Below, piece by piece: positions 3,648 through 41,744 of a DNA stretch of 52,518 nt. Numbering within the stretch: the first letter of the stretch is position 1; each line of letters begins with the position of its first letter. A program made the position numbers and the translations under genes. The DNA is from Spirochaetia bacterium (lineage in GTDB: Bacteria > Spirochaetota > Spirochaetia > PWKH01), in assembly GCA_007116075.1 (NCBI GenBank), contig SKJE01000054.1, forward strand, positions 1 through 52,518, in the 5' to 3' direction. Under the pieces are notes generated by a model. The model was given only the letters and a program-made list of their open reading frames with translations. It was not told the DNA's origin and ran no database searches.

Positions 3648-3681
3648 GAGGCCGTAATCCAAAAAAAAAGATTACGGCCTC
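3648..3681. terminator. hairpin between convergent genes (possible bidirectional terminator)
   Basis: Perfect 12-bp stem GAGGCCGTAATC / GATTACGGCCTC around a CAAAAAAAAA loop, between the stop at 3633 (+) and the stop at 3696 (-). There are no flanking U-tracts, so function is uncertain. Confidence 0.45.
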
Positions 3682-3695
3682 AATCACCACTGTTT

Positions 3696-4643
3696 TTACA
3701 GTTTCGGGTGAAGCTGCTCTTCAAGCCAACTGACTATCTGACGTTCCACGCCTTCCAGTCTCCTCTCGAAGGATTCCTGGGTCCGATATCCGATATGGGG
3801 TGTAACGATAACCTGATCAAATTCAAGAAGCCGGTGATCCTTCTCCATGTTCGTCTTTTCCTTGGTATCAATCCCGGCTCCTGCAATGCATCCTTCCTTC
3901 AGAGCCCTGATGAGCCCCTCCATCTCAATGACAGATCCACGACCCACATTTATGACAAAGGCAGAGGGCTTCATTGTCGAAAGCAGTTCATAGGTGACCA
4001 TCCCTTCAGTCTCTTCTGTCAGGGGGCAATGGATGGAGAGTATGTCAGACTCCCGAAAGAGCTGCTCCAGCTTCACATAGGTCACCCCCGCCTGGTACGC
4101 CTCCCCACTGGGAGTGAGATCATAGGCGATCACCCTGCAGCCGAAGGTATTGACAATCCTTGCTACGGTCACCCCCACGTCTCCAAGACCGATAATACCG
4201 ATTGTCCTGCCGTGAAGTTCCTGACCCAGATAGGGCAGATCATGGAGGCCGGTCCTCATGGCATTATTAGCAATAATCATGGAACGTAGCAGGCTGATCA
4301 TCATGGCTACAGCCAGCTCAGCCACCGCAAAGGCTGAGTACCCTCTAATCTGGGCAACCCTGATACCCCGGTTACTGCAGGTCTCAAGATCAACATGATC
4401 CTGACTTGAAAAGGCTACCACCAGCAGTTTCAGATGTTTTGTCTTCTCTATGACTGCCTGAGTTACCGGGAGGTCAGTGATCACTACCACGTCAGCCTCC
4501 CTTATTCTCAGTGCTGTCTCCTTCTGCGTACCCGGTCGATCAGTATAATAGATGAATTGATGTCCCAGCTGTTCAAACCGCTTTTTGAGCCCCTCCACCA
4601 TATCATAAGAGACAGACAGGGGCTCTGCACATACTATGTTCAT
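3696..4643 (-). CDS. D-isomer-specific 2-hydroxyacid dehydrogenase (glycerate/phosphoglycerate dehydrogenase-like)
   Basis: NAD-binding motif GIIGLGDVGVTVAR and a C-terminal TPHIGYRT block. I chose the start at ATG 4643 (MNIVCAEP...) because GGAGGTG lies 5 nt upstream. The track ORF extends to 4712 without an RBS. Confidence 0.85.
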   Translation of the reverse strand: MNIVCAEPLSVSYDMVEGLKKRFEQLGHQFIYYTDRPGTQKETALRIREADVVVITDLPVTQAVIEKTKHLKLLVVAFSSQDHVDLETCSNRGIRVAQIRGYSAFAVAELAVAMMISLLRSMIIANNAMRTGLHDLPYLGQELHGRTIGIIGLGDVGVTVARIVNTFGCRVIAYDLTPSGEAYQAGVTYVKLEQLFRESDILSIHCPLTEETEGMVTYELLSTMKPSAFVINVGRGSVIEMEGLIRALKEGCIAGAGIDTKEKTNMEKDHRLLEFDQVIVTPHIGYRTQESFERRLEGVERQIVSWLEEQLHPKL

Positions 4644-4749
4644 ATACTCACCTCCAGCATATGGATTCATAAAAAGACCCCTCATTCTACCCCCATCCGG
4701 AGGTGAGAACAAGGGGTATGCATTCCCCCAAAATGATTCAAAGGGTGAA

Positions 4750-6066
4750 TCAGCGGACTGCCTGTACCAGTGCGGCCAGTGCTTTCCGGTAGTCCGCTTC
4801 GGCCACAGATACCAGCAAGCTTAAGGGAGAATTACCGGCGGTTATGGATACTGTTTCAATACCCGATTTCCTCAGTGCAGCAGGCACCTGTTCAAAAAGT
4901 CCCGCCGTGACAGGAATCCCTTCACCAACCACACCAATCAGTGCCAGGGGGCCTGTGATTTCGCAGGCATCTGCTTCCAGCTCCTGCTCAATACGCTTAG
5001 CAGTTACCGAGCTGTCCCAATCGGCCTGTTTTGCATCTACATACAGGGCAATGGAGTCAAATCCACTCAATGTCACATCAGAGCGCAGTCCCATGTCGCT
5101 GAAAAGTTCGCGTACTTGTGCAGGGAATTCAGGATACCTGCTGAGCATGAACTTCTCAATAATGACCCGGTAGTAGGGCATCTTACCGGAAACCCCGACA
5201 ATCGGCTGGGATGAAACATCGCGGTCGGAGGATATCTTCGTCCCGGGGGCTAGAGGATCATTGGTATTCTTGATCTGGATCGGAATACCCGCCTTGCGTA
5301 CCGGAGCAATAGCCTCCTCATGGAATACGTTGGCACCGATCGATGCGAGTTCCCTGATCTCCCGATAGGTGATATTTCTCACCACCTGGGCATCTTCAAC
5401 AATCCTCGGATCCGCCGTGAGCAGTCCCGACACATCGGTCCAGTTCTCATAGAGATCCGCACCAACTGAGCGGGCCGCAATTGCTCCCGAGATATCCGAA
5501 CCTCCCCGGGTAAAGGTCTTCACCTTCCCTGAAGGATCAGATCCGTAAAACCCGCTCAGTACATAGATCGCATGGGGATCATTGAACCGTGCTGCGCAGC
5601 GTTCATAGGATGATTCATCTACCTGGCCGTCATCTGTGAGGCCTATCACTTCACTGGCATCAATAAACTGCGCACCCAATAACTCTGCGATCATCAGTCC
5701 GTTAAGGTACTCTCCCCGGCTGGCTGCAAAATCTGGGGTCTTTTCCCGGGGAATCTGCTCATAGATCCAGTCAAGTTCATCCTTCACCTGGCTGCCCGCC
5801 TGCAGCGATTGTGCTATGTCGAGAAAACGCTTGCGAATAATTCCGAAGGGCTTGTCGATCGACTCCCCCCTTTCAACGAGACGATGGCACTGATAGAGCA
5901 GATCCGTGATCTTCTCGTCCTCCTTGTGCTCCTTTCCGGGGGCTGAAACCACCACAATGCGGCGGCGCTCATCAGAAGCGATAATATCCTTCACCTTCTG
6001 TATCTGTTTCGCGTTCGCCAGGGACGTACCCCCGAACTTGCTGACCCATAATTCCTTAGCTGCCAT
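4750..6066 (-). CDS. lysC: aspartate kinase (monofunctional)
   Basis: 438-aa ORF with the N-terminal kinase motif VSKFGGTSL, GGSDISGAIAA, and C-terminal ACT-like regions. RBS GAAGGAG. Confidence 0.9.
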   Translation of the reverse strand: MAAKELWVSKFGGTSLANAKQIQKVKDIIASDERRRIVVVSAPGKEHKEDEKITDLLYQCHRLVERGESIDKPFGIIRKRFLDIAQSLQAGSQVKDELDWIYEQIPREKTPDFAASRGEYLNGLMIAELLGAQFIDASEVIGLTDDGQVDESSYERCAARFNDPHAIYVLSGFYGSDPSGKVKTFTRGGSDISGAIAARSVGADLYENWTDVSGLLTADPRIVEDAQVVRNITYREIRELASIGANVFHEEAIAPVRKAGIPIQIKNTNDPLAPGTKISSDRDVSSQPIVGVSGKMPYYRVIIEKFMLSRYPEFPAQVRELFSDMGLRSDVTLSGFDSIALYVDAKQADWDSSVTAKRIEQELEADACEITGPLALIGVVGEGIPVTAGLFEQVPAALRKSGIETVSITAGNSPLSLLVSVAEADYRKALAALVQAVR

Positions 6067-6100
6067 GGAACATCTCCTTCATCACACGTGTGAGTTGCTG

Positions 6101-7270
6101 TTATCGTACGAATAATGCTTCCGGAAACTCAATGATCTTCTCACATCCGCTGTCAGTGACCAGGAAGGGTTCACTGCATTCAAAGCCGTAGGTATCAAGC
6201 CAGATACCCGGCATGAAGTGGATGGTCATACCCGGTTTCAGGATTGTCTTGTCTCCCGGCCTGAGGCTGACGGTATGCTCACCCCAGTCAGGGACAAAAC
6301 TGAGACCAAAAGAGTACCCCACCCGGGAAGGTTTATCAATACCGGTACCGACAAGACAGGAACGCCACACAGCCTCAACTTCTTCAGCACTCATCCCCGG
6401 TCCGATTTCGGACAAGGTCTTCTGCAGTCCCTTCACGACTACATCAGCTACGTGCTGAAGATCCTGAGGCGGATCCCCGATAAACACAGTACGTGAGAGC
6501 GGGGCATGGTAGTGATGACGGGCAGAACCGAGTTCAAGAAGCACCACATCTCCCCGCTGGTACGCCCGCTGGGTATCAAAGGTCAGGTGAGCCGAGGAGG
6601 TACGTTCAGCACTGGGCATAATGGGAAAAATTGCCGGGCTGTCTCCGCCGAAGGATGGGGTTCCACGAATCTGCTGGGCTGATACCACAGCAGCCGCTTC
6701 CCGTTCCGCAACTCCCTCACGAATCGTGTCCAAGGCCAGGGACATTGCAGATGAGGTAATTTCGCCTGCTTCACGGATATACTGAATTTCCTGGTCCGTC
6801 TTAATCGTCTTCACCCATCCGACAAGATTATCTGCATCGACTATTGAGAGATAGGTCAGTTCCTTCATTAAGGTGTTATACATCTTGGGAGTGACCCAGT
6901 ATCCGTCCATCTCCATGGCAAGCACATGTCCCTTCCCCCGGATAAGACCTGCGACAAACTCCATAGTATGGATATACCGGGACTGCACATACTCATCTTT
7001 ATACCCGAATATATGGTCATCGGGCAGCCAGGTGGTCAGCCGGGCAGCATTGGAATCCTGCTGGCGACCGAACCAGAGGGGAACCGGATCCGTCAGAGAA
7101 ACGATCAGTCCCTGATGTACATAGAAACTCCAGCCGTCAAACCCTGTGAGATAATTCATATGGCTCGGGTCCATGACCAGCAGCAGCTGTATACCCCGAT
7201 GATCCATTGACTCCTGGACCAGACGGATTCTCCGCTGGTACTCCGCAGCGGGAAATGCAAGTTTGTTCAT
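6101..7270 (-). CDS. M24 (creatinase/prolidase-fold) hydrolase, ectoine-hydrolase (DoeA/EutD)-like, paralog 2
   Basis: Creatinase-type N-domain plus pita-bread C-domain. About 45% identical by eye to the ORF at 9286-10464 (shared NYLTG(F/Y)DGWSFYVHQ, HYHAP, PDWGEHT, RPGDKTIL). ATG at 7270 is preceded by AGGTGG. The track start at 7279 is GTG. Confidence 0.7.
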   Translation of the reverse strand: MNKLAFPAAEYQRRIRLVQESMDHRGIQLLLVMDPSHMNYLTGFDGWSFYVHQGLIVSLTDPVPLWFGRQQDSNAARLTTWLPDDHIFGYKDEYVQSRYIHTMEFVAGLIRGKGHVLAMEMDGYWVTPKMYNTLMKELTYLSIVDADNLVGWVKTIKTDQEIQYIREAGEITSSAMSLALDTIREGVAEREAAAVVSAQQIRGTPSFGGDSPAIFPIMPSAERTSSAHLTFDTQRAYQRGDVVLLELGSARHHYHAPLSRTVFIGDPPQDLQHVADVVVKGLQKTLSEIGPGMSAEEVEAVWRSCLVGTGIDKPSRVGYSFGLSFVPDWGEHTVSLRPGDKTILKPGMTIHFMPGIWLDTYGFECSEPFLVTDSGCEKIIEFPEALFVR

Positions 7271-7285
7271 GCTGTCCACCTGCCT

Positions 7286-8287
7286 CTACCGTTGAACCCG
7301 TATTCCTGCGTTCTTCTTCCGGGCAATATCATAGGCCATCAGTGCAATCATCGTATCCTGGACACCGACTCCGGTCAGGTCGCAGATGGTCACCTGGTCA
7401 TCATCTATCCGTCCCGACTGCCTGCCGTGAATGATCGCACCGAGTTCCTGAACAGGAGTCTCATCGGTAACAATATCTGCAGCTACGGCAGACCTCAGCT
7501 CACCGAGCCGGAAACACTGGGATTTCAGGTCGCAGGCTATGATGTCTGCACCCCGGAACACTTCAGGCAGCAGTTCCTGTTTATCCTCGGAATCACTGCC
7601 CATACTGGTTATATGCATCCCCGGCCGCACCCACTCAGGTTTGAAATAACCCTTCCGCGCAGGAGTGGTGGTCACGATGATACCGCTGTGTGCAGCAACC
7701 TCTTCTCCGATCTCAGCAGAGACCACCTCCACCTTCAGCCCTTTGGTCATGTCATCGACAAAGGCCGCTTTACGTTCATCCGAATCGATGCTGTACATGT
7801 AGATTTTCTTAAAGGGCCGTACCAGGAAGAGCGCTTCCATCTGGTAGCGTGCCTGGACGCCGCAGCCGAAGACACCGACCGTATCGACATTCCTCGGCGC
7901 CAGATACTTGGCGGCAATCGCTCCAGCCGCTGCAGTACGCACCTGGGTAAGATAACCGTTGTCAAGCAGTACCGCCTGAAGGAACCCGGTTTCTGCACTA
8001 ATCACAAGCATCTGTCCGCTCTGGGAAGGCAGGCCTATCTCGTTATTGTGAAAGAACCCCGAAGCGATTTTTATCGCCATACCGGGCAGGCCCTTGATGA
8101 AGGCGCTCTTGATATCGACCTCACCATCCTTATCAGGCACAGGCAGCATCATGATAGGCGGAACCGTCGCCTGACCCGCCTCCAGGGCTGCAAAGCCCTG
8201 CTCCACCTGGGCAATGACCTGTTCATCCAGCTTCACATAGGAACGTAATTCCTTTTCTGACAGAATAATGACTGCATCATCTTTCAT
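7286..8287 (-). CDS. ornithine cyclodeaminase / mu-crystallin family protein (EutC-like)
   Basis: 333-aa ORF with Rossmann block VGVFGCGVQARYQ and typical OCD-family length. RBS AGGAGGAG. The start overlaps the upstream gene by 11 nt. Confidence 0.8.
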   Translation of the reverse strand: MKDDAVIILSEKELRSYVKLDEQVIAQVEQGFAALEAGQATVPPIMMLPVPDKDGEVDIKSAFIKGLPGMAIKIASGFFHNNEIGLPSQSGQMLVISAETGFLQAVLLDNGYLTQVRTAAAGAIAAKYLAPRNVDTVGVFGCGVQARYQMEALFLVRPFKKIYMYSIDSDERKAAFVDDMTKGLKVEVVSAEIGEEVAAHSGIIVTTTPARKGYFKPEWVRPGMHITSMGSDSEDKQELLPEVFRGADIIACDLKSQCFRLGELRSAVAADIVTDETPVQELGAIIHGRQSGRIDDDQVTICDLTGVGVQDTMIALMAYDIARKKNAGIRVQR

Positions 8288-9281
8288 CTGTTTGCTTCTC
8301 CTCCTGCATCATCACCGTAAGATATTGTGATCGGTCCACATTTCGACCGGTAAGGGGAAGGACAACCCGCCTGCCGGAGATCTCAATTTTTCCAGACAGG
8401 ATTGCCCCGATTCCAACGCAGGCCGCCCCTTCAGCGACCAGGCCGTGGTGCCGGAAGCAGAAATACATACCCCGGCTCACATCATCCTCATCCACGATGA
8501 TATGTTCATCAACATACCGTGAGATCAGTTCCATGGTATACCTGTTCTCCCTGCCGATTCCCCCTAAGAGAGAGTCCGCCAGGGTATCCTGCTCTCTGAG
8601 AACAACCGGCTTTCCCGCCTTCAGGCTCTCAATCATAACAGGAGAACGTTCAATGGAGACACCGATCACCCTGATGGAGCTCTTCAGCTCCTTGGCTGCC
8701 ATGGCAATTCCTGCCAGCAGTCCTCCTCCGGACAGGGGTACCAGCAGGGTATCTGCCTCTTTGTACTGCTGCAGGATCTCCAGGGCGATGGTCCCCTGCC
8801 CCGCAATAACTGCGGGATCATCAAAGGGAACCACCGGCGTGAGTTTCCGCTCTTCGGCAATACGGCAGTAGGCCTCTTCAGCCTCATCCTGGGATGATCC
8901 GACCACTACCGGTTCACCGCCGAGGCTCCGGATCGCCTCAATCCGGTACCGGGGGACCCGTTTGGATAAACACACCACAGCCGGAATCCCGCTCTCTGAT
9001 GCAGCCAGGGACACCGCCCGTCCATGGTTCCCCGTGGAAAAGGTGATCACCCCCCGTTTCTGTTCCTCCGGACTAAGGGAGCGAATCCGGTTTGTCGCCC
9101 CCCGGATTTTAAAGGATCCGGTGGGCTGAAGCAGCTCCAGCTTCAGGTGCACTTCGGTTCCTGCCCCGCCTTTCCGGGAAAGCTCCGGGGCATGAATAAG
9201 AGGCGTTTTCCGGGCCACTGCATAGATCCGCCTGGCAGCTTCATATACTGCGGCAATATCGGGGGTCATACGCTTTTCCAT
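8277..9281 (-). CDS. PLP-dependent threonine/serine dehydratase-fold enzyme (EutB-like)
   Basis: Fold-type II PLP motifs: SFKIRGATNR (PLP lysine), STGNHGRAVS, PLSGGGLLAGI. Sits directly upstream of the OCD-family gene, as in eutB-eutC. Confidence 0.8.
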   Translation of the reverse strand: MEKRMTPDIAAVYEAARRIYAVARKTPLIHAPELSRKGGAGTEVHLKLELLQPTGSFKIRGATNRIRSLSPEEQKRGVITFSTGNHGRAVSLAASESGIPAVVCLSKRVPRYRIEAIRSLGGEPVVVGSSQDEAEEAYCRIAEERKLTPVVPFDDPAVIAGQGTIALEILQQYKEADTLLVPLSGGGLLAGIAMAAKELKSSIRVIGVSIERSPVMIESLKAGKPVVLREQDTLADSLLGGIGRENRYTMELISRYVDEHIIVDEDDVSRGMYFCFRHHGLVAEGAACVGIGAILSGKIEISGRRVVLPLTGRNVDRSQYLTVMMQEEKQTDER

Positions 9282-9285
9282 CGTC

Positions 9286-10464
9286 CTACTCTTTCACCAG
9301 CATCATGTCGATGGGATAGTCATACAGCGGTTCATACCCGTCGTCGGTCATATAGATTGATGCATCGATCTCAAACCCCACGTTTTCATACCAGATGCCC
9401 GGTATCAGGTGTATGGCCATGTTGGGAACCAGAATGGTCTTGTCCCCGGGACGGAAACTGATGGTGTGCTCACCCCAGTCCGGCGGATAATTCACACCGA
9501 TGGAGTACCCGAGGCGGGACTCCTTCACAATGGTGGAGTGGCTGATGGCTTCTCTCCATTTCGCCTCCACCTCCTCTGCGGTGACCCCCGGCCTGATCCA
9601 GTCCAGGGTTGCCTGAAGCCCCTCAGTGACGATATCTGCAGTCTCCTGCATAAGCTTAGGAGGGTTTTCACCAAGGAATATGGTTCGTGCAATGGGAGCA
9701 TGGTAGTGCTTGTAGACCCCGCTCAGCTCAAGGAGCACCGCCTCATCCTTTACAAAGGGTGTATCACTCCATGTCAGGTGGGGTGTTTTGGTGGCTTCTC
9801 CCGCCATAATCAGGGGAACAATGGCAGGGTAATCTCCTCCGTACTGTTCAGTTCCCGCATACTGGGCCTGTACAATCCGGGCAGCGGCATCGCATTCCCG
9901 TACTCCCGGCTTGATGCTGTTCTTCGCTGCATCCATAACCTTTACGGCAATCTGACCGGCCCGTTTCATCATCTCGATCTCCTGGTCGGATTTCACCACC
10001 CGGATCCAGTTCACCAGGGCATTTGCATCAACAAAACTGGCGTTGGGCAGGCTCTTCTCAAGCTCAACATAGGAGCGATGGGTGAAATAAAACTGGTCCA
10101 TCTCCACCCCGATGGTCTTACTCCCCCAGCGCCGTTCTTTGATGAGGCCCGCCACGAAGTGCATGGGATGCTTCACCAGTGACTGGACGTAATCATCGGC
10201 ATACTCAAAGATATGCTCATCATCAAGATAGCTGGTGATCCTGGCACCGTTGGCATCCATTCCCCGGCCGATCCAGAGCGGCTGTTCCTCTTCCAGGGAG
10301 ATCACAAGACACTGATGCACGTAGAAACTCCAACCGTCATACCCGGTCAGGTAATTCATATTCGCCGGATGGCTGATAATAAGCAGATCCATTCCCTTTT
10401 CCTGCATGGACTGCTTTGTTTTCTTAACCCGCTCCATATATTCCTGTTTTGTGAAGACTGACAT
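9286..10464 (-). CDS. M24 (creatinase/prolidase-fold) hydrolase, ectoine-hydrolase (DoeA/EutD)-like, paralog 1
   Basis: 392 aa, same architecture as 6101-7270. RBS GAAGGAGG. Placed between the EutA-like and EutB-like genes. Confidence 0.7.
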   Translation of the reverse strand: MSVFTKQEYMERVKKTKQSMQEKGMDLLIISHPANMNYLTGYDGWSFYVHQCLVISLEEEQPLWIGRGMDANGARITSYLDDEHIFEYADDYVQSLVKHPMHFVAGLIKERRWGSKTIGVEMDQFYFTHRSYVELEKSLPNASFVDANALVNWIRVVKSDQEIEMMKRAGQIAVKVMDAAKNSIKPGVRECDAAARIVQAQYAGTEQYGGDYPAIVPLIMAGEATKTPHLTWSDTPFVKDEAVLLELSGVYKHYHAPIARTIFLGENPPKLMQETADIVTEGLQATLDWIRPGVTAEEVEAKWREAISHSTIVKESRLGYSIGVNYPPDWGEHTISFRPGDKTILVPNMAIHLIPGIWYENVGFEIDASIYMTDDGYEPLYDYPIDMMLVKE

Positions 10465-10492: not shown

Positions 10493-11230
10493 CTACATAA
10501 ATCCGGAAAACCGGCGCTTAACCACCGCCGAATAAACAAAATCAATCATAGTCACAAAGTCAAACACCGGCAAGCCAACCGCCTCCTGAACTGCAGCTCC
10601 GTAGGGAGGAAGCAGGCTGCATTCCAGCAGGATTGCCCTGACCTCCGGATAATCCCTGGATAGATCCACAGCGCGCTGCACCACCGCAGCTTCCACAAGA
10701 TCCGTATCCAGTTCGCCCAGCTCTCTCACTACCGCATCAGTAAAATGATCATGATCCTCCAGGCCGCGAATCCGCAGGGCGGGAAGCAGCTCTTCCGGCA
10801 CACCGGCTCCGTGAAACAGCTCAGGGGTCAGTGAATGCTTATTGGCGGTAATCACACCGATCTCCCTATTTCTGCCGATGATCTGGCTGATAAAGGGGAT
10901 CTGCATTAAACTTGAAAGAAACACGGGAATTCCGGCATTCCGGGCTATCTGCTGCTGGTATATCGCCATAAAGCCGCAGTCTCCCGTCACTGCCCGAACT
11001 CCCTCCCGCTGGAGAGCGGCCACCGCTTCGGTAACCGCATCCAGGAGTTCCATATCATGGCGGAAAATCCGTTCCACCGTAAATCCTTCCACCCGCTGGA
11101 ACCTTACCGGATAGGAGTAGGTTGTGGCATTTGCCACGTCACCGGGTATGAAGGGGGCATAATTCTCCAATAGGACAATACCGATTGCCTCACCGTAGCT
11201 GACCTGTCCCACTTTCACCCGATACCGCAT
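10493..11230 (-). CDS. Asp/Glu/hydantoin racemase (arylmalonate decarboxylase) family protein, EutA-like
   Basis: 245 aa with two Cys-containing blocks (TGDCGFM and LLECSLLPPY) at the spacing typical of this fold. RBS AAGGGGGAG. Confidence 0.7.
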   Translation of the reverse strand: MRYRVKVGQVSYGEAIGIVLLENYAPFIPGDVANATTYSYPVRFQRVEGFTVERIFRHDMELLDAVTEAVAALQREGVRAVTGDCGFMAIYQQQIARNAGIPVFLSSLMQIPFISQIIGRNREIGVITANKHSLTPELFHGAGVPEELLPALRIRGLEDHDHFTDAVVRELGELDTDLVEAAVVQRAVDLSRDYPEVRAILLECSLLPPYGAAVQEAVGLPVFDFVTMIDFVYSAVVKRRFSGFM

Positions 11231-11251: not shown

Positions 11252-12529
11252 CTACACATTTGATATGCTCGGCAGGAAGGTGGCAATCTGGGGAAACAAA
11301 ATGATCAGTATCGTCGAGAACACCAGCATCAGCACAAAGGGCGGTGTTTTCCTGATTACCTCCACATAGGGCCTGCGGAATATCAGCTGGGCAGTAAAAA
11401 TGTCGCACCCGAAGGGCGGCGTCGCAGAACCAATCGCCGACTGGAGCACTACCAGGGTACCCAGCAGGATCGGGTCGATGCCGGTACTCACTACGTAGGG
11501 CTGGAAAATCGGGCTGAGCACGTAGATCGCCACGATCGGGTCTACAAACATACAGGCCACAAAGTAGGCGATGACCACCACAATGATCAGCTGCAGCTGA
11601 GTTGGATCGGTCCCGATAATTATCGGCATGATCTGCTGGGGAATACGAAGGAAACTGATGACCCAGGAGAACACCTGCCCGGCACCGACCAGAATGAATA
11701 CCACACCGGTAACGATACCTGCATCGAGGATCGCCTTTACCAGTTTCTGGAAGGTCAGGGTTCGGTAGATAAACCCCTCCAGGATCAGTGCATAGGCAAC
11801 GCCTGCAGCTGCGGCTTCGGTCGGGCTGAAGATACCGCCGTAGATACCGCCGACAACAAGGATGGGAAAACCAAGGACCAGGAAGCCATCCTTGATGGCC
11901 TTCCAGCGAACAGCCCAGCTGGCCTTCTCGAGAATAGCAATTTTATTTATCTTGGAGTAGAAGAACACATAGGTTGAAAAGAGCAGGAAGATCAGGATAC
12001 CGGGGCCAATTCCTGCTAAGAACAGCTTACCGATTGATGTGCTGGTAACAACTCCATAGACGATAAAACCGATGCTTGGAGGGATCAGCAGTGCCACGTC
12101 ACTGGCATTAATAATTAACCCGAGGGTAAATGGACTTGAATAACCGGCCTTCAAGAGCATCGGCCGCATGGTTCCTCCGATGGCTGACACGGTTGCCTGG
12201 GTTGACCCGGACACCGCACCAAAAAGGGTGCAGCTTGCAGTAGTGGTGATAGCAAGTCCACCCGGGATATGGCCTACAAATACCCGGATCATATCTATGA
12301 GGCGAGTAGCAGCCTTTCCTGAGGTCATCAAGTTTGCCGCAAGAATGAACATCGGCACCGTAACCAGTGACGGAGGAACAAATCCGTTGATTATCTGCTG
12401 GATAACCACCTGCATATTGATCTGCGGCATGGCGATACCAAGAAAGAGCATCAGCGGGGCAAGCAGGGTCACCATGAAGGGAAATCCCAGCAGCAGCATC
12501 AGCACCATAGAAATCCACATAACATTCAT
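11252..12529 (-). CDS. TRAP transporter large permease (DctM type)
   Basis: 425-aa polytopic membrane protein, highly hydrophobic throughout, immediately downstream of a DctQ-size gene. RBS GAAGGAGAG. Confidence 0.9.
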   Translation of the reverse strand: MNVMWISMVLMLLLGFPFMVTLLAPLMLFLGIAMPQINMQVVIQQIINGFVPPSLVTVPMFILAANLMTSGKAATRLIDMIRVFVGHIPGGLAITTTASCTLFGAVSGSTQATVSAIGGTMRPMLLKAGYSSPFTLGLIINASDVALLIPPSIGFIVYGVVTSTSIGKLFLAGIGPGILIFLLFSTYVFFYSKINKIAILEKASWAVRWKAIKDGFLVLGFPILVVGGIYGGIFSPTEAAAAGVAYALILEGFIYRTLTFQKLVKAILDAGIVTGVVFILVGAGQVFSWVISFLRIPQQIMPIIIGTDPTQLQLIIVVVIAYFVACMFVDPIVAIYVLSPIFQPYVVSTGIDPILLGTLVVLQSAIGSATPPFGCDIFTAQLIFRRPYVEVIRKTPPFVLMLVFSTILIILFPQIATFLPSISNV

Positions 12530-12530
12530 A

Positions 12531-13172
12531 CTACTTGCTCTCCTTCATAGTGATTTGCTCCAGCATGCTCTCCGATTCCTTGGTGGCCTCCGCGATCATG
12601 CTTTCCTCATCCTCATATTCACTCTGCTGCTCAGGTGACTGCCAGATATCCTTTTCCCGGATGTTCTTGATAAACGTCCTTACATACTGGAACCCGGCCA
12701 TAAAAAACCCGATCGGGGCTGCTATGATAAAGTACCAGTAGGGCATCCTTAAAGAAGCCGTTGTGGTTCCCCGTACTCGTATATTCATCAGATACTGCAA
12801 TGAAATATAGGCAAGGTAAAACATCACTATAGCGCTCACCGCAGAAATCACAAACATCATTGCCTTTTCCAGCTTCGGGGGGAATGCCTCCAGAAGTGCT
12901 CCCATGCGAATATGACGAGCCTTTCTCGCTGCATAACTTGTCCCGATAAACGTGATGATCATGACAAAAAACTGCGCCAGCTCTTCAGCAAAATAAATAC
13001 TTCTGTAGATATTCCGAGCAGCTACATTTGCAATCAGCAGTACAGCCAGTGCCATCGTACTGATGGTAATTATTGAAACTTCAAAACGATCGACCACCAG
13101 AGAAAGTACTTTCCCGATCTTCCCAATTACGGTGATTTCTTCGCCTTTGGAATCGTTTTTTTGTTCGCTCAT
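12531..13172 (-). CDS. TRAP transporter small permease (DctQ type)
   Basis: About 213 aa with 4 predicted TM segments, sitting between DctP-type and DctM-type genes. Start set at ATG 13172 (MSEQKN...) because the longer track ORF would run through a GC-rich hairpin. The C-terminal acidic tail is unusual. Start is uncertain. Confidence 0.75.
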   Translation of the reverse strand: MSEQKNDSKGEEITVIGKIGKVLSLVVDRFEVSIITISTMALAVLLIANVAARNIYRSIYFAEELAQFFVMIITFIGTSYAARKARHIRMGALLEAFPPKLEKAMMFVISAVSAIVMFYLAYISLQYLMNIRVRGTTTASLRMPYWYFIIAAPIGFFMAGFQYVRTFIKNIREKDIWQSPEQQSEYEDEESMIAEATKESESMLEQITMKESK

Positions 13173-13205
13173 AGGTTTTTTTACCCTTATTTCGTGTATA
13201 GATTG

Positions 13206-13231
13206 TGCCCCGGGGGCGCACCCCCGGGGCA
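13206..13231 (-). other. GC-rich intercistronic stem-loop between the TRAP binding-protein and permease genes
   Basis: Perfect 11-bp stem TGCCCCGGGGG / CCCCCGGGGCA with a 4-nt loop and no U-tail. Located in the 87-nt gap after the SBP stop. Confidence 0.6.
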
Positions 13232-13259
13232 GTATCATCCGTCTAGAAATCTGTATGTA

Positions 13260-14324
13260 CTACATCCCTAATGCAGCCATTGCGTTTTCAATGTCCTGCT
13301 GCAGTGCTTCAAGCATCTGTTCTGAATCGGGTCCGCCGATCTGCGGGAATACAGGATATACGTTATTCACAATCTGCTCCCTAAGATGGGCTTGCTGCTC
13401 ATCGGTAAATTCAGAGAACTGAATTGACGGCCTGTTAGTCTCAATCTGTGCCCGCATGTCAGCATTCACATCCATGATCCATTCAGCTGAATCAACAATT
13501 GCCTGATCCCAGAACTCATGAATGAGGTCTCTGTATTCATCAGACAAACTCTCATAGAATGCCAGGTTTACAACAGGAATACCCAGGAAGGGCTCTGCCC
13601 AGAGCTGCACAAAGTAGTCGGTCACTTCATAGAATCCCATGGTGTAGTTGGCAAACATAGGCTGGCTCTGTGCATCAATCAGACCGGTCTGCAGTCCGCT
13701 GTAGATTTCACCATAAGCCAGTGGAGTGGGGTCTATGCCGTAGGCGCGGTAGTTTCTGCTCAGCATATCAGAGGGCATAATCCTGGTCTTCAGTCCAACT
13801 AGATCTGATGGTCCGCCAACGGGCGTCTTGGAGGTCAGCCACTGCCAGCCTTCGAAGTAGATACCCAGGGGTACCAGGTCATTCCGGCGGAACTTCTCAT
13901 CCATCATGGGAAAGAAATCACCGTTTCGCACAACATGCTCAAGTACCTCAGCAATATTTTCCTTCGGCCATACATAGTGCAGGGCAAGGGCATTTACCTG
14001 AGATACAAAGGAACTCAGCCAGCCGTAGTCGGTAAAGACAAATTCCATAACCCCGTACTGGACCAGCTCAACAATATCTCTGGTATCACCAACAGTTCCA
14101 TAGGGATACACAGTAATATCGAACATCCCATCTGTCTCTTCCCTCATGAAGTCGCCAAACTTCTCTGCCCACACGGTCATGAAGTCAGTGTCCGCTGCAC
14201 CTTCAGCAGAAGCTAACCGCACCTCAAGTTTCTGCGGTCCCTCTGTTTCCTGCGCTCCCTGGGCAAACATACCCATCGGAACCAGCAGCAGTACTGCTGC
14301 TGCAATAACTAATAATTTCTTCAT
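13260..14324 (-). CDS. TRAP transporter substrate-binding protein (DctP type)
   Basis: About 354 aa with an N-terminal signal peptide (MKKLLVIAAAVLLLVPMGMFAQG). Size and position are typical for DctP-family SBPs. Start at ATG 14324 with RBS AAGGGGGA. Confidence 0.85.
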   Translation of the reverse strand: MKKLLVIAAAVLLLVPMGMFAQGAQETEGPQKLEVRLASAEGAADTDFMTVWAEKFGDFMREETDGMFDITVYPYGTVGDTRDIVELVQYGVMEFVFTDYGWLSSFVSQVNALALHYVWPKENIAEVLEHVVRNGDFFPMMDEKFRRNDLVPLGIYFEGWQWLTSKTPVGGPSDLVGLKTRIMPSDMLSRNYRAYGIDPTPLAYGEIYSGLQTGLIDAQSQPMFANYTMGFYEVTDYFVQLWAEPFLGIPVVNLAFYESLSDEYRDLIHEFWDQAIVDSAEWIMDVNADMRAQIETNRPSIQFSEFTDEQQAHLREQIVNNVYPVFPQIGGPDSEQMLEALQQDIENAMAALGM

Positions 14325-14435
14325 ACTAAAATCCCCCTTAATAAATTTTGTATCTTTTTTTTCCATAGGTCAACCAAAGCTTCTTTTTTCTTTGCATCCA
14401 CCTCCTTTTCTCTCCGTTCACCCCATAGGTGAATC

Positions 14436-15617
14436 CTATGAGTATCTCTCAAAGTATCTCATGGCTCCGCGAACCAAAAGCTCCACCCCTGTCGTAAGCG
14501 TAGCCTCATCAATGGTAAACTTCGGGTTGTGGTGGGGATAGGTACTTCCCGCCTCCTCCCGAGCTGTACCGAGGAACACCAGTACCGACGGCACCTGATC
14601 ACAGAATGCTGAAAAGTCCTCACAGGCCATGGATGCATGTTCTGTAATGCAGGACTCTCCAAGCATCTCCTTGGCAACATCAAAGGCCATTGAAGTCATG
14701 GTCGGATGATTCACCACCGCATCATTTTCGTGCTGGATGTCAAAGGTGCATCCGCATCCATGAACAGTACATATGTCCGTGACAAGTTTCCTGAACCGCT
14801 CAGTGGGGTTATGCAGGTCCCCAGGACCGGCGGCATAAAGATACCGTATGGTCCCCTCCAGCACCACCTCATCGGGGATAATATTGTTCTTCGATCCCCC
14901 CTGGACCTTGCCGAACATAATTGCCGTAGCGTTCATCGGTGAGATGAGCCTCGTCTGGATCTGCTGTACCTGCTGTATCACGTTTGCAGCGGCAATAACC
15001 GGATCAACCGCACTCTCAGGATACCCCGTATGCCCTCCCCTGCCGGATATGGTGACAGAGAAGACATCCATGGAGGCGGTTACCGGTCCGGCCTTGATCC
15101 CGACCTTCCCGCTCTCGATGGGCGACCAGATATGCAGTGCCAGGGAAGCATCAACATGGGGATCTTCCAGCACCCCCTCATCTATCATCAGCTGGGCACC
15201 GGCTATCTCCTCATTGGGCTGGAAGACAAACTTGATCCTGCCTTCCAGTTCATCGGCCATCTCAGTAAGTATTTTTGCTGCAATAAGCATCATCGCCATA
15301 TGGGCATCATGGCCGCAGGCATGCATCACGCCGGGATGCATTGAGGCAAAGGCAAAGGAGTTCTCCTCCTGGATCGGCAGGGCATCCATATCGGCACGCA
15401 GCAGAAGGACTGCTCCGTCCTTTCGGCGACCGTCAAGCATGGCTGCGACACCTGTACCGGCGATGCGTTCAGTTTCCAAGCCGAGGGACTGCAGGTATGT
15501 CTCAACCTTTTCAGCTGTCCTGAATTCCCGGAACCCCAGTTCCGGATACGCATGAAAATCTCTTCTCAGTGCAATCAGTTCTTCCCTGTATGTCTCTACG
15601 GCCCTGCGTATTTCCAT
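14436..15617 (-). CDS. M20D-family amidohydrolase (N-acyl-amino acid amidohydrolase / hippurate hydrolase-like)
   Basis: 393 aa with blocks FHAYPELGF, LRADMDALP, HACGHDAHMAM and a C-terminal HHNPKF. Confidence 0.85.
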   Translation of the reverse strand: MEIRRAVETYREELIALRRDFHAYPELGFREFRTAEKVETYLQSLGLETERIAGTGVAAMLDGRRKDGAVLLLRADMDALPIQEENSFAFASMHPGVMHACGHDAHMAMMLIAAKILTEMADELEGRIKFVFQPNEEIAGAQLMIDEGVLEDPHVDASLALHIWSPIESGKVGIKAGPVTASMDVFSVTISGRGGHTGYPESAVDPVIAAANVIQQVQQIQTRLISPMNATAIMFGKVQGGSKNNIIPDEVVLEGTIRYLYAAGPGDLHNPTERFRKLVTDICTVHGCGCTFDIQHENDAVVNHPTMTSMAFDVAKEMLGESCITEHASMACEDFSAFCDQVPSVLVFLGTAREEAGSTYPHHNPKFTIDEATLTTGVELLVRGAMRYFERYS

Positions 15618-15622
15618 GATAC

Positions 15623-16639
15623 CTACACCAAATTCCTCTTTATTAACGTTTCGGCGATCTGCACTGCATTGAGGGCAGCCCCCTTGCGGACGTTATTTGA
15701 AACGCACCAGAGGTTGATGCCCGTCTCAATGGTGAGATCCTCCCGGATCCGGCCGACCATCGTAAGATCTTCATCATTGCTCATAAAAGGCGTAGGATAC
15801 TCTTCTTGAGCTGGATTATCGATCACCTTGATCCCTTCAGCCCGGGAAAGCATATCCCTCACCTCGTCTGCTGAGATTTTTTTCTCAGTCTCGATATTGA
15901 TAGACTCGGAGTGACCGTACCAGACTGGAATCCTGACACAGGTAGCAGATACCTCGATATCCGGGGAGAGCATTTTCTTGGTCTCGTTGACCATTTTATA
16001 CTCCTCCTTGGTATATCCAGCTTCCTCGAACACATCAATATGGGGAATAGCGTTAAATGCGATCTGCTGGTTGTAGACCCGGGGAGCAGATACCTTTCCG
16101 TCCCGAAGCATTTCCCTCGCCTCTTCATCGAGCCCCAAAATGCCTTTCTGACCGGAACCGGACACTGCCTGGTATGTGGATACCACCACCCGCTTAATCT
16201 TAGCCGCATCATGGATCGGCTTGAGCGCCACCAGCATCTGGGTGGTAGAGCAGTTGGGATTGGCAATAATTCCCTTGTGCCAGTCAAGATCCTGGGGATT
16301 TACCTCGGGAACCACCAGCGGACAGTCCGGGTCCATACGCCAATGTGAACTGTTATCCACCACAATGGCTCCCTCCTCTACGGCAACGGGGGCCAGCACC
16401 TTGCTGGCATCCCCGCCTGCGGAGAAGATCGCAATATCGACTCCTGTAAAGGCTCCCTTCTTTGCCTCCTGCACTTCCCACTCTTTTCTCTGGAACGTGA
16501 CTTGCTTGCCGACCTGGGATGCTACATCCAAGGGCACCAAGGTGCCAACGGGAAATGACCGGCGCTCCAGGGTAGATATCATTTCTGTACCGACAACCCC
16601 AAGCGCACCAACCACTGCAACAGTATACGTCTTAGCCAT
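15623..16639 (-). CDS. asd: aspartate-semialdehyde dehydrogenase (phosphorylating)
   Basis: N-terminal VAVVGALGVVG Rossmann motif and active-site block IIANPNCSTTQM. ATG at 16639 is preceded by AGGGGGAAG. The track start at 16645 is GTG. Confidence 0.9.
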   Translation of the reverse strand: MAKTYTVAVVGALGVVGTEMISTLERRSFPVGTLVPLDVASQVGKQVTFQRKEWEVQEAKKGAFTGVDIAIFSAGGDASKVLAPVAVEEGAIVVDNSSHWRMDPDCPLVVPEVNPQDLDWHKGIIANPNCSTTQMLVALKPIHDAAKIKRVVVSTYQAVSGSGQKGILGLDEEAREMLRDGKVSAPRVYNQQIAFNAIPHIDVFEEAGYTKEEYKMVNETKKMLSPDIEVSATCVRIPVWYGHSESINIETEKKISADEVRDMLSRAEGIKVIDNPAQEEYPTPFMSNDEDLTMVGRIREDLTIETGINLWCVSNNVRKGAALNAVQIAETLIKRNLV

Positions 16640-16651
16640 CTTCACTTCCCC

Positions 16652-18064: not shown

Positions 18065-18883
18065 TCATCGGCTGGGCCTGAATGAGGATCGTGTGTTCTC
18101 CGCTACCCGCTCGGTAATCCTCCGGGCAGCCTGCATCAGCGGCTGGACCAGATCCATAATCCTGGCTTCTGTTAGCCGCATGGAAGGTCCTGATATCGAT
18201 ATGGTAGCAATTACCGTACCCTCAACATCAATAATGGGTGCGGCTACACTGTTCAGGTCATCGCTGAACTCAAGTATCTCCGTAGAATAACCCTTGCCCT
18301 GGGCCGACCGTACAGCCCTGATGAACTCTTCACGCTCCAGTATCGTGCGGGAGGTTCGCTCCCGCATGGGGATCTCACTGAGATACCCCCGAAGCTGTTC
18401 ATCACTGTAGTGAGAGAGCAGCAGCTTCCCGGAAGCGCAGGAATTCACAGGATAGGAATAGGTAACATCAGGGTTGAGTATCACATGGTGGGCGCTTTTC
18501 ACTTCGTCAATTGCCAGTACCATGTCCTCGGAGAGCACATTGAGATAGATATTTTCATGGGCTATCTGCTCCAGCTCATTCATCGCAGGTTTTGCCACAT
18601 CCCGAAGGCTTTTATTGAGGGGCACTGTACTGGCAAGCTGGAAAAGCTTGAAGGTAAGCCCGTATCCCTGCTCCCATTTCTCCACATATCCCGCAGACAC
18701 CAATGTCGCCAGCAGCCGGTGCACATTTGCCCTGGTCAGCTCGAGCCCCTTGCTGATTGATGACGGGGAGACCGGCTGATGAGCTGCGATGTATTCAAGC
18801 ATATGGAACGCCTTCAGCACAGTCGTCGCCAGCACATAGCTTGATGTTTCATTATTTGTACGCTCGTTTAATTGGTGCAACAT
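18065..18883 (-). CDS. IclR-family transcriptional regulator
   Basis: 272 aa with an N-terminal wHTH (VLKAFHMLEYIAAHQPVSPSSISKGLELTRANVHRLLATLVSAGYV) and a C-terminal IclR effector domain. First gene of the co-directional train. Confidence 0.85.
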   Translation of the reverse strand: MLHQLNERTNNETSSYVLATTVLKAFHMLEYIAAHQPVSPSSISKGLELTRANVHRLLATLVSAGYVEKWEQGYGLTFKLFQLASTVPLNKSLRDVAKPAMNELEQIAHENIYLNVLSEDMVLAIDEVKSAHHVILNPDVTYSYPVNSCASGKLLLSHYSDEQLRGYLSEIPMRERTSRTILEREEFIRAVRSAQGKGYSTEILEFSDDLNSVAAPIIDVEGTVIATISISGPSMRLTEARIMDLVQPLMQAARRITERVAENTRSSFRPSR

Positions 18884-19939: not shown

Positions 19940-19958
19940 ATATATCCTCCTAAAAAAA

Positions 19959-22051: not shown

Positions 22052-22206
22052 GTACATTGCTCCTATTAACTACTTTACCAGGTAATAACATACCCATACT
22101 CCTTCCCGATCCGGAAGGATCCCTCAGCAAAGGGGATATGGTGATGTGTGTTTTCACCTTCATTACCTAGGCGCCGATATCCCTAGGGCATCAGCGTGTG
22201 ATTAGT
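22052..22206 (-). promoter_or_regulatory. structured ~150-nt 5' leader of opuA (candidate cis-regulatory RNA)
   Basis: Four consecutive hairpins on the minus strand: CCUAGG..CCUAGG, GGUGA..UCACC, AUCCC..GGGAU, (U)CCUUCC..GGAAGG(A). They are bracketed by a possible closing helix AGGUAAU/AUUACCU, which competes with the first hairpin for its AGG. Confidence 0.4.
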
Positions 22207-22779: not shown

Positions 22780-22847
22780 ATCATCCGCCTCCTCTTGTCA
22801 TCTCTTGCATGACCGGTACAAGATATACTATCATGGGGTACAAAAAG

Positions 22848-30804: not shown

Positions 30805-30866
30805 AACGCTTAATCCTCCATTACTCATAGTATAATGAAGCTTTCCATTGTTGACAACGCACAAAA

Positions 30867-41672: not shown

Positions 41673-41744
41673 ATTCTGACTCCTCCCTGTCTATTGTACT
41701 CTATTTTATTGCAGTTTCAATCCTATACATGGTACGCTGTATGC

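Follow-up and report, generated by a model that had tools for sequence, protein, structure and literature searches.

Other microbes release ectoines, which are abundant osmolytes. In degrading them, aerobes oxidize aspartate semialdehyde with the non-phosphorylating DoeC/Ssd aldehyde dehydrogenase. The locus examined here lies in a 52,518-nucleotide stretch of DNA from a Spirochaetia bacterium, the whole of which was analyzed and is referred to as the window. The closest described systems are Halomonas elongata DoeABCD and EutABCDE-Ssd-Atf with UehABC of Ruegeria pomeroyi and Sinorhizobium meliloti, which it resembles in its DoeA/EutD and EutA, EutB, and EutC homologs (PMC13188858, PMC5924519), and a diaminobutyrate (DABA) transaminase, a TRAP importer, and aspartate as the predicted end product are also common to both. 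It differs from the canonical systems in having a phosphorylating aspartate-semialdehyde dehydrogenase (Asd) together with an aspartokinase (Ask) and no DoeC/Ssd aldehyde dehydrogenase (ALDH)-family enzyme, an M20 deacetylase instead of DoeB/EutE, an IclR regulator instead of EnuR/AsnC, and two DoeA copies, and its hosts are anaerobes (Spirochaetota and Desulfuromusa). None of its DoeA and EutB matches reaches the NCBIfam equivalog cutoff.

Putative ectoine clusters reported in AEM in 2026 from Thermodesulfobacteriota and Bacillota consist of 9-13 genes in one direction, in most cases including two eutD homologs but neither eutE nor ssd, and show no synteny with the proteobacterial clusters, a description that fits the present operon type (PMC13188858). 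The remaining genes of those clusters were left as "not shown to be involved," and none of the terms asd, lysC, aspartokinase, aspartate kinase, and semialdehyde dehydrogenase came up in a word search of the main text (PMC13188858). The version found in Bacillales, abgB-thrA-adh, encodes a homoserine dehydrogenase and an aldehyde dehydrogenase and represents a different solution from Asd plus Ask (PMC13188858).

In the window, the Ask gene closes a tight 14-gene operon that runs from 18883 to 4750 on the minus strand with spacers of 0-87 nt, in the order IclR, DABA transaminase, Asd, M20, TRAP importer, EutA, DoeA, EutB, EutC, DoeA, and Ask. The features of the locus are listed in the direction of transcription.

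18065-18883, minus strand: IclR-family regulator, first operon gene (HTH_IclR and IclR_C).
16652-18034, minus strand: class-III aminotransferase, predicted diaminobutyrate:2-oxoglutarate transaminase, DoeD/Atf/EctB-like (Aminotran_3, E 1.8e-103).
15623-16645, minus strand: phosphorylating aspartate-semialdehyde dehydrogenase of the asd_B type (TIGR01296, 445.5 bits, cutoff 324.2).
14436-15617, minus strand: M20 amidohydrolase, predicted N-acetyl-DABA deacetylase (Peptidase_M20 and M20_dimer).
11252-14366, minus strand: TRAP transporter, predicted ectoine/hydroxyectoine importer, with Pfam matches for DctP (13260-14366), DctQ (12531-13238), and DctM (11252-12529).
10493-11230, minus strand: EutA-like protein of the Asp/Glu racemase superfamily (NF005679 PRK07475, 281 bits, cutoff 231; weak Asp_Glu_race match).
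9286-10464, minus strand: ectoine hydrolase homolog DoeA/EutD, copy 1 (Creatinase_N and Peptidase_M24).
8277-9281, minus strand: EutB-like PLP dehydratase (PALP; NF005680 EutB, 389.9 bits, narrowly under the cutoff of 413).
7286-8287, minus strand: EutC-like reductase of the ornithine cyclodeaminase/mu-crystallin family (OCD_Mu_crystall; NF006141, 420.3 bits, cutoff 408).
6101-7279, minus strand: ectoine hydrolase homolog DoeA/EutD, copy 2 (Creatinase_N and Peptidase_M24).
6067-6100, minus strand: 34-nt spacer before Ask, with an AGGAG Shine-Dalgarno sequence and without a terminator.
4750-6066, minus strand: aspartokinase (AA_kinase and ACT), ATG start, 438 amino acids, final gene of the operon.
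4669-4717, minus strand: terminator-like hairpin followed by CUUUUUAU, directly 3' of the Ask stop codon.
3696-4643, minus strand: D-2-hydroxyacid dehydrogenase, accessory gene (2-Hacid_dh_C, E 1.2e-55; under all NCBIfam equivalog cutoffs).

The position given to the Ask gene in the first-pass annotation, 34 nt downstream of the second M24 hydrolase and on the same strand as asd, is exact. The transaminase, predicted to convert DABA to aspartate semialdehyde, scores above the cutoff of TIGR00709 dat (425.8 bits, cutoff 401.6), and it is 75-83% identical in the related loci L004, L097, L098, and L103. The M20 enzyme is below the cutoff for NF038260 DoeB2 (266 bits, cutoff 550) and above that for TIGR01891 amidohydrolases (345 bits, cutoff 153.75); a DoeB/EutE-type deacetylase gene was not found in the cluster, and the M20 enzyme is predicted to stand in for it. 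DctM is 66-84% identical in all related loci, including those of Desulfuromusa and Alkaliphilus. Both DoeA copies have TIGR02993 ectoine_eutD as best match, under its equivalog cutoff of 613 (464.7 bits for copy 1 and 375.7 bits for copy 2). Homologs of copy 1 with at least 69% identity are present in cultured anaerobes, Sediminispirochaeta smaragdinae has a DoeA homolog of 72% identity, and copy 2 is found in most other loci. No lineage other than that of the window and L009/L010 has the D-2-hydroxyacid dehydrogenase gene 3' of Ask, and the start codon of this gene, an ATG at 4643 preceded by GGAGG, agrees with the NCBI gene call in L003.

Aspartate kinase (EC 2.7.2.4) interconverts aspartate and ATP with aspartyl-4-phosphate and ADP and is under allosteric control by lysine and threonine. 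A Pfam search of the Ask protein identifies an AA_kinase domain (PF00696, E 1.5e-40) and, at the C-terminus, ACT_9 at residues 377-436 (27.7 bits, cutoff 27). It scores above the cutoff of TIGR00657 asp_kinases (236 bits, cutoff 208.7) and narrowly below that of the aspartate kinase equivalog NF006540 (413.4 bits, cutoff 434), as do its homologs from Desulfuromusa and from the Sphaerochaetaceae locus L095. It aligns end to end with the aspartokinase of PDB 3TVI (E 8e-100, through residue 436), an alignment in which the KFGGTS, RGGSD, and WTDVxG..TADPR motifs are all intact. That the protein scores as a normal aspartokinase, and that cluster-linked Ask keeps both ACT regulatory modules, count against an ATP-forming role. 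The precomputed ACT match is absent from many close homologs, and a comparison of the ACT/kinase identity ratio across clades gave no consistent signal of relaxed constraint on the ACT region, the divergence ratios being 0.62, 0.72, and 0.90 in linked clades and 0.72 in unlinked Asks.

In every related locus having the lower-pathway genes, Asd is near the head of the cluster and Ask is at its tail, and this tail position is kept in L004-L010, L091-L093, L096-L100, and Desulfuromusa L094/L103. The cluster-tail Asks of the Spirochaetota loci L004-L010 and L091-L093 are 50-68% identical, and in Spirochaetota the linked Ask is followed by at least five unrelated downstream contexts. A metagenome scan with EutC gave six loci, and Ask comes after the second DoeA in all five of the loci that were found through EutC independently of Ask. 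As a negative control, a contig scan with Ask returned only Asks of at most 48% identity, none of the 80 being linked to doe/eut genes, and the genome to which the window belongs was not recovered by it. The Desulfuromusa cluster keeps Asd and Ask and has a middle part that differs from the Spirochaetota arrangement, lacking EutB and EutC; in L103 the order is IclR-AT-Asd...DoeA-GDH-TfrAB-like-Ask, with another M20 gene behind Ask, and L094, from the cultured Desulfuromusa kysingii (Ask WP_092344162.1), resembles L103 and carries the cluster with Ask. An Alkaliphilus locus without Ask is also without Asd and the transaminase. In the Ask phylogeny, all linked Asks, Desulfuromusa included, group together in a single clade (96% bootstrap), apart from the unlinked Asks, which include those of other Spirochaetia and of deltaproteobacteria. 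In two phyla, Ask and Asd are genuine members of operons of this type and are conserved in them.

The Asd of the operon is an extra copy in several of these loci: a second Asd, of the asd_EA type, lies a few kilobases away in L004 and L005, and a further Asd is found upstream in Desulfuromusa L103. In an alignment that included the solved Asds, the operon Asd keeps the NPNCST, GHSES, WRMD, ETKK, and GRIRED motifs; the family-conserved Cys, His, and Gln we take to be catalytic, and the Arg, Lys, and Glu to bind substrate and phosphate. Since these conserved active-site residues are retained, an acyl phosphate is its expected product. There is also a weak Pfam match to Gp_dh_C. The cofactor region has an NAD-type signature. 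Where solved Asds have L-A-S-x-R-S, the operon Asd has P-L-D-V-A-S-Q, and the clade form is P-L-D-[VI]-A-x, so that Rossmann strand beta-2 ends in an Asp (Asp38) and the Arg of the NADP-dependent Asds is missing. This Asp is present in 119/119 close homologs having an N-terminus, and the Arg is absent from the clade; Asp or Glu occupies the position in only 4 of 150 family representatives. On the basis of known Rossmann folds and solved Asd structures, we assume that the S-x-R-S segment contacts the 2'-phosphate of NADP(H). A literature search on Asd cofactor specificity gave nothing specific to Asd, and the prediction of NAD+ use therefore draws on the general Rossmann rule and on the alignment with solved Asds. 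The operon Asd is predicted to use NAD+ and to work oxidatively, and the NADPH that had been proposed as its reduced product is accordingly revised to a predicted NADH, given the Asp at beta-2 and the lost Arg.

In the window, the signals around Ask fit its place as the last gene of the operon. The 34-nt spacer preceding it folds with -4.9 kcal/mol, not better than shuffled sequence, and the 98-nt stretch at 4655-4752, which contains the hairpin that follows Ask, has a minimum free energy of -36.7 kcal/mol (z = -2.9). The hairpin and U-run after Ask are comparable in L007, L092, and L093, and there is a strong hairpin in L005. Folding also places a strong bidirectional terminator at ~3650-3690, 3' of the D-2-hydroxyacid dehydrogenase gene. 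The best promoter-like site on the operon strand is at 18918-18890, just 5' of IclR. In a promoter and terminator consensus scan of the operon, the counts were not above those of shuffled sequence, and the hairpins were revealed by direct folding only. The spacer before Ask is 91-198 nt long and contains hairpins in L004, L007, and L091, so co-transcription of Ask is not certain in every locus. With Rfam, no riboswitch or leader was found in the window or near Ask in seven related loci; the sole Rfam match in those seven loci is a tRNA in L004.

In the pathway that we propose, the TRAP system would bring in ectoine or hydroxyectoine, the DoeA/EutD hydrolases would open the ring, with the hydroxylated form being handled by EutABC, the M20 enzyme would remove the acetyl group to give DABA, and the transaminase would convert DABA to aspartate semialdehyde. 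The operon Asd would then use NAD+ and phosphate to form aspartyl-4-phosphate, from which Ask, with ADP, would form aspartate and ATP. No DoeC/Ssd-type ALDH was found among the ORFs of the window, of L001, or of the adjoining 10 kb at the window start, and we propose that Asd and Ask take its place. The aspartokinase equilibrium lies far toward aspartate and ATP. It is from gene context and thermodynamics that we infer the direction of flux and the formation of ATP, and the substrates and cofactor preference are likewise predictions. Because of the synteny, the Ask phylogeny, and the extra NAD-type Asd, the ATP-forming reading is well supported by context, and we hold with moderate confidence that Ask is the final, ATP-forming enzyme of an anaerobe-type ectoine/hydroxyectoine catabolic operon, paired with a phosphorylating Asd. 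The wider proposal, that the ATP-forming Ask and the NAD+-specialized Asd replace DoeC/Ssd in an anaerobe-specific fermentation of ectoine/hydroxyectoine that gene transfer has carried between Spirochaetota and Desulfuromusa, seems to us evenly poised. No published proposal of an ATP-forming route through Asd and Ask was found in a literature search, nor did reports of growth on ectoines, or of induction by them, turn up for Spirochaetota or Desulfuromusa.

The sequence of reactions could in principle run the other way, with Ask, Asd, and the EctB-like enzyme taking aspartate through aspartyl phosphate and aspartate semialdehyde to DABA in a locus that makes a compatible solute or a DABA-derived product. 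These are the first three steps of ectoine synthesis, and specialized aspartokinases do occur in ect biosynthetic clusters (review PMC5924519). Such an Ask_Ect, of ectABC(D)-ask clusters, resembles the present Ask in being an aspartokinase co-located with ectoine-related genes, but it adjoins ectABC and feeds synthesis, whereas the present Ask has degradative neighbors and no ect genes, a distinction made by gene context. Neither a GNAT/EctA gene nor an EctC cupin gene was found among the scanned ORFs of the 52.5-kb window or the genes called in the adjoining 10 kb at its start, so the absence of both genes, from which the first-pass annotation had argued against an ask/asd/ectB biosynthetic trio, holds, and it extends to one of the flanks in which that annotation had allowed that ectA and ectC might lie. 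The 127-amino acid ORF at 22396-22779 was considered as EctC and rejected, as it is a bacterial PH-domain protein. The importer and several hydrolases noted earlier are likewise present as TRAP DctPQM, two M24 proteins, and one M20 protein; the M24 pair are the two DoeA/EutD homologs, the M20 is of the DoeB2-like deacetylase type, and EutABC accompanies them. The Asd signature is NAD-type and not NADPH-type, and the Desulfuromusa version brings in further catabolic functions, namely a glutamate dehydrogenase and a pair resembling fumarate reductase. A biosynthetic locus is rejected because ectA and ectC are absent from the window and the scanned flank, and we regard it as highly improbable; the gene content supports a locus for ectoine/hydroxyectoine breakdown. 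Within a catabolic locus, Ask and Asd could act mainly on hydroxylated intermediates, for example from 3-hydroxy-aspartate semialdehyde to 3-hydroxyaspartate and ATP, with EutB as a hydroxyaspartate dehydratase and EutC as an iminosuccinate reductase finishing the pathway. The presence of two DoeA paralogs points to two ring substrates, and the EutABC roles given in the literature are proposals (PMC13188858). EutB has further matches to threo-3-hydroxyaspartate ammonia-lyase (236 bits) and to BhcB (205 bits), and EutC has one to the iminosuccinate reductase BhcD (181 bits). These alternative matches are far under their family cutoffs, and the EutB and EutC models score higher; moreover, Desulfuromusa, without EutB and EutC, still has Asd and Ask, and L004, which is missing the second DoeA, still has Ask. 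We consider this reading improbable, and it is in any case a variant of the best explanation and no true alternative.

The explanation that weighs most against an ATP-forming Ask is that it is an ordinary housekeeping, ATP-consuming aspartokinase for lysine/diaminopimelate, threonine, and methionine that adjoins, or is co-transcribed with, an ectoine island, in which case ectoine-derived semialdehyde would go straight to biosynthesis or to another oxidizing enzyme. The Ask of L095 is nested inside the linked clade (100% bootstrap) and has the same 3' genes as the Asks of L007, L092, and L093 (DHO_dh, acyltransferase, and MutL), but 5' of it are metY/HTS/serA/serC-like genes and AsnC, and ectoine genes are absent within a distance of 10 kb. 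This Ask is presumably used for biosynthesis, and the linked-clade type can thus persist without an adjacent cluster. The window Ask is also of the PRK09034 type, like the unlinked Spirochaetia Asks in L011, L013, and L057, its ACT domains are kept and its scores are normal for an Ask, and a second ask was not found, in a contig scan that did not recover the window's genome. Chance adjacency, in contrast, fits poorly with an Ask that stays attached to the cluster through the different downstream contexts and that moves with it into Desulfuromusa, where cluster genes lie on either side, and the window, L092, and L093 have their terminator-like hairpin 3' and not 5' of Ask. A dedicated NAD-type second Asd would serve no obvious purpose unless aspartyl phosphate were made and needed an outlet, and inducing a biosynthetic Ask would be wasteful while ectoine supplies aspartate semialdehyde. 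On balance, we regard a housekeeping role as unlikely, while giving it more weight than the other two readings.

Two known systems offer precedents for the proposed ATP-forming role of Ask. Carbamate kinase of the arginine deiminase pathway, which shares the amino-acid-kinase fold with Ask, forms ATP in catabolism from an acyl-phosphate-type donor, in the final reaction encoded by an anaerobic operon for the breakdown of a nitrogen compound. It differs in its substrate, in having no ACT domains, and in being a dedicated catabolic enzyme, whereas the sequence of the present protein is that of a regular aspartokinase. Mechanistically, Asd is related to GAPDH, and the Asd and Ask pair would act like GAPDH and phosphoglycerate kinase in substrate-level phosphorylation, with the aldehyde oxidized via a Cys thioester, phosphorolysis of the thioester to an acyl phosphate, and transfer of the phosphate to ADP. 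The substrates and the kinase fold differ between the two pairs, and the physiological direction of Asd and Ask is our proposal.

The replacement of Ala/Arg by Asp in the operon Asd provides a simple sequence marker for the pathway in genomes, and cultured strains that carry the cluster or its core genes include Desulfuromusa kysingii and Sediminispirochaeta smaragdinae. To our knowledge, few substrate-level ATP-forming reactions are known in anaerobes. If the proposal is correct, the aspartyl-phosphate/aspartokinase reaction would be a new one, obtained by reversing two textbook biosynthetic enzymes. It would account for the energy that fermenters and sulfur reducers obtain from ectoines in saline, anoxic sediments, and it would mean that ectoine catabolism reaches well past the aerobic Proteobacteria in which it has been studied so far.

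The aspartokinase gene (Ask) closes a 14-gene operon of predicted ectoine/hydroxyectoine catabolism. Its genes follow one another in the same direction on the minus strand, from 18883 down to 4750, at intervals of 0–87 nt, in this order:

Minus strand, IclR regulator (profile match)
Minus strand, class-III aminotransferase of the diaminobutyrate (DABA) transaminase family
Minus strand, phosphorylating aspartate-semialdehyde dehydrogenase (Asd), asd_B type (445 bits, cutoff 324)
Minus strand, M20 amidohydrolase (DoeB2 match below threshold)
Minus strand, TRAP transporter genes DctP, DctQ and DctM
Minus strand, EutA-like protein
Minus strand, DoeA/EutD copy 1, EutB, EutC and DoeA/EutD copy 2 (DoeA2)
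4750–6066, minus strand, Ask, ATG start, 438 aa, aspartokinase by sequence

As the first-pass annotation had noted, Ask shares the strand of asd and lies 34 nt downstream of the stop codon of the second M24 hydrolase gene (Creatinase_N/Peptidase_M24; 6101–7279, minus strand), and an AGGAG ribosome-binding site sits in this spacer, which folds into no stable structure. Immediately 3' of the Ask stop codon is a hairpin followed by CUUUUUAU, and the 98-nt stretch containing it has a folding energy of −36.7 kcal/mol (z = −2.9). Beyond the hairpin comes a D-2-hydroxyacid dehydrogenase gene, with its most plausible start at ATG 4643, which is preceded by GGAGG and agrees with the NCBI gene call; folding places a strong bidirectional terminator between this gene and the convergent genes. 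The remaining window holds housekeeping genes (SecDF, GroEL, IspH, PGI, PFK, LigA, DnaE and RecG), and the nearest homologs are from Spirochaetota. Two sequences match the window: an 82.9-kb contig from an ENA metagenome and one contig in NCBI assembly GCA_003556725.1.

Several other genes were recorded around the operon. Directly upstream of the IclR gene and on the same strand (19070–22057) is an OpuA-type ABC importer, comprising an OpuAC binding protein, a permease and an ATPase with CBS domains, and a second Asp/Glu-racemase-family gene lies at 22809–23624 on the strand opposite to IclR; together these may form another compatible-solute uptake or utilization unit. A xanthine-dehydrogenase-family molybdoenzyme set (about 41700–45077, plus strand) consists of MoCoBD_1/2 with a hammerhead domain, a 2Fe-2S subunit and a FAD_binding_5 subunit, and since its 999-aa ORF as called overlaps LigA, which is encoded on the opposite strand, the real start is later. 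A 288-aa ORF adjoining GroEL (30016–30882) has no Pfam match at E ≤ 0.001. Beyond the window start (L001 19323–20495), an encapsulin (Linocin_M18) gene adjoins a rubrerythrin/EncFtn-like cargo gene, followed by FeoB.

By sequence, Ask belongs to the aspartokinase family: profile searches find an AA_kinase domain and a C-terminal ACT region, TIGR00657 scores 236 bits (cutoff 208.7) and NF006540 413 bits against a cutoff of 434, and an alignment to the PDB 3TVI aspartokinase covers the protein from end to end and shows its catalytic motifs to be intact. The Ask_Ect class is defined by co-location with ectABC(D), a neighborhood that the window Ask does not have. A search of the window and of the 10 kb past its start found no ALDH-family (DoeC/Ssd-type), GNAT/EctA or EctC gene, and comparative genomics strongly supports the first-pass reading of a catabolic module over a biosynthetic ask/asd/ectB trio. 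The cluster represents a Doe/Eut variant with replacements for two defining components, DoeB/EutE and DoeC/Ssd; the canonical pathway uses the ALDH-family DoeC/Ssd, which the ectoine literature also names "aspartate-semialdehyde dehydrogenase" (PMC7192451) and which is not found in the window. Thermodesulfobacteriota clusters that have two copies of eutD but neither eutE nor ssd are described in a 2026 survey, which leaves the other genes unassigned (PMC13188858); a word search of its main text finds no mention of asd, lysC, aspartokinase, aspartate kinase or semialdehyde dehydrogenase. A full-text literature search returned no paper proposing an ATP-forming Asd/Ask branch and none on anaerobic ectoine fermentation in spirochaetes.

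The association of Ask with the cluster is conserved. Seven homologs with 50–68% identity (related loci L004–L010 and L091–L093) each occupy the 3' end of the same kind of cluster, and the cluster Asd is at the 5' end wherever enough upstream sequence is available. The genes 3' of Ask vary among at least five contexts: 2-hydroxyacid dehydrogenase with an AMP-binding enzyme; DUF763 with a second Asd; a short-chain dehydrogenase, Rce1-like protein and epimerase; DHO_dh, acyltransferase and MutL; and PilZ with CheD. In loci retrieved with EutC, a sampling independent of Ask, it follows DoeA2 in all five that have downstream sequence. Two loci were retrieved through DoeA. In one, Desulfuromusa L103, which represents a second phylum, the order is IclR, aminotransferase, Asd, EutA, M20, DctPQM, DoeA, glutamate dehydrogenase, a proline-racemase-like gene, a TfrA/TfrB-like (fumarate reductase) pair, Ask and a second M20, with neither EutB nor EutC; cultured D. 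kysingii (L094) has the same cluster tail. The genes between DoeA and Ask (L103 11669–19203, also in L094) encode a 1000-aa glutamate dehydrogenase, a proline-racemase/hydroxyproline-dehydratase-like protein, a TfrA-like flavoprotein and a TfrB/GlpC-like Fe-S/CCG subunit. The other locus retrieved through DoeA, Alkaliphilus L102, lacks Ask, Asd and the transaminase alike, so the three lower-pathway genes occur as a set or not at all. As a negative control, doe/eut neighbors were sought around 80 Asks of ≤48% identity and were found beside none. A neighbor-joining tree separates, with 96% bootstrap, the linked Asks, which come from two spirochaete groups and Desulfuromusa, from all unlinked ones, including those of other Spirochaetia and deltaproteobacterial MAGs. 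A tandem pair of aspartokinase genes, each about 41% identical to the window Ask, occurs in a Lachnospiraceae MAG (L023 8439–11308).

The main rival, which we regard as rather unlikely, is that Ask is a housekeeping enzyme merely adjacent to the cluster, or one with a dual use. In its favor, the linked Asks keep the ACT region, which, measured against the kinase domain, has not diverged consistently more in the linked clades, and the spacer 5' of Ask is 91–198 nt and hairpin-containing in L004, L007 and L091. In the 198-nt L007 spacer (9802–10000), a 30-aa ORF is called and there are GC-rich hairpins (CGCCCCUUGGGGCG, GGAGGCGAAGCCUCC) that lack a U-run; the spacer may be a repeat element or an RNA-stabilizing structure. 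The Sphaerochaetaceae locus L095 also favors this rival: its Ask nests within the linked spirochaete clade (100% bootstrap) and is followed by genes matching those in L007, L092 and L093, but it is preceded by metY-like, HTS, serA-like, serC-like and AsnC regulator genes, with no ectoine genes found within 10 kb and no 3' terminator found by folding. Two readings would fit L095: loss or relocation of the cluster in that lineage, or an Ask that is the family's housekeeping enzyme with an ectoine island beside it. In support of operon membership, L007, L092 and L093 have a terminator-like hairpin with a U-run 3' of Ask, L005 has a strong hairpin there, and the spacer 5' of Ask is only 23–34 nt in the window, L005, L092 and L093. 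Taken together, the tail position, the varied downstream contexts, the EutC-based sampling, the recurrence in a second phylum, the negative control, the single clade and the terminator position indicate that Ask belongs functionally to the cluster and moves with it.

The operon Asd is, from sequence comparison, clearly an additional, specialized copy. L004 and L005 encode a second Asd of the asd_EA type (TIGR00978 339–343 bits, cutoff 301), probably the housekeeping enzyme, with 27–29% identity to the operon Asd, and L103 has a further Asd just upstream. In both spirochaete lineages this second gene (L004 12960–13979; L005 13552–14574) lies a few kb downstream of the cluster and adjoins a DUF763 gene. 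The operon Asd keeps the family-conserved active-site Cys (NPNCST), His (GHSES), Gln, Arg, Lys and Glu, the last three of which we take to bind substrate and phosphate, so an acyl phosphate rather than the free acid is the expected product. In Rossmann folds, an acidic residue at the end of strand beta-2 favors NAD+ and disfavors the 2'-phosphate of NADP+. There the operon Asd reads P-L-D-[VI]-A-x-x, compared with L-[AG]-S-x-R-S in the three best solved Asds (2QZ9, 8JUO and 2GYY); among 119 close homologs having the N-terminus all have Asp and none Arg, whereas of 150 wider-family representatives 130 have Ala at the Asp position, 8 have Ser and only 4 have Asp/Glu, with Arg/Lys present in 110. 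This signature points to NAD+, revising the NADPH product proposed earlier, and an NAD+-linked Asd would suit an oxidative, catabolic role.

In the proposed pathway, the TRAP system would import ectoine or hydroxyectoine, the DoeA copies would hydrolyze the ring with EutABC dealing with the hydroxylated form, the M20 enzyme would deacetylate the ring-opening product, and the aminotransferase would convert DABA to aspartate semialdehyde, all as in the established Doe/Eut scheme (PMC13188858, PMC5924519). EutB (236 bits to threo-3-hydroxyaspartate ammonia-lyase, 205 to BhcB) and EutC (181 bits to the iminosuccinate reductase BhcD), a pair at 7286–9281 with all of these additional matches below cutoff, might here finish hydroxyectoine breakdown at the 3-hydroxyaspartate stage and not via hydroxy-ADABA. 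Asd would then convert aspartate semialdehyde, NAD+ and Pi to aspartyl-4-phosphate, from which Ask would form aspartate and ATP with ADP. We infer these last two steps from the absence of a DoeC/Ssd gene, the conserved Asd/Ask linkage, and the fate and equilibrium of aspartyl phosphate: we know of no other metabolic fate for it, and the aspartokinase equilibrium lies far on the ATP side. In Desulfuromusa, the glutamate dehydrogenase would fit regeneration of 2-oxoglutarate, and the fumarate-reductase-like genes an electron sink from aspartate through fumarate to succinate. The Asd/Ask pair would function in the manner of GAPDH and phosphoglycerate kinase, and Ask would parallel carbamate kinase, which shares its kinase fold and forms ATP. 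Comparative genomics gives strong support to the assignment as a catabolic module, and operation of Ask in the reverse, ATP-forming direction, toward which we lean, is the most economical reading.
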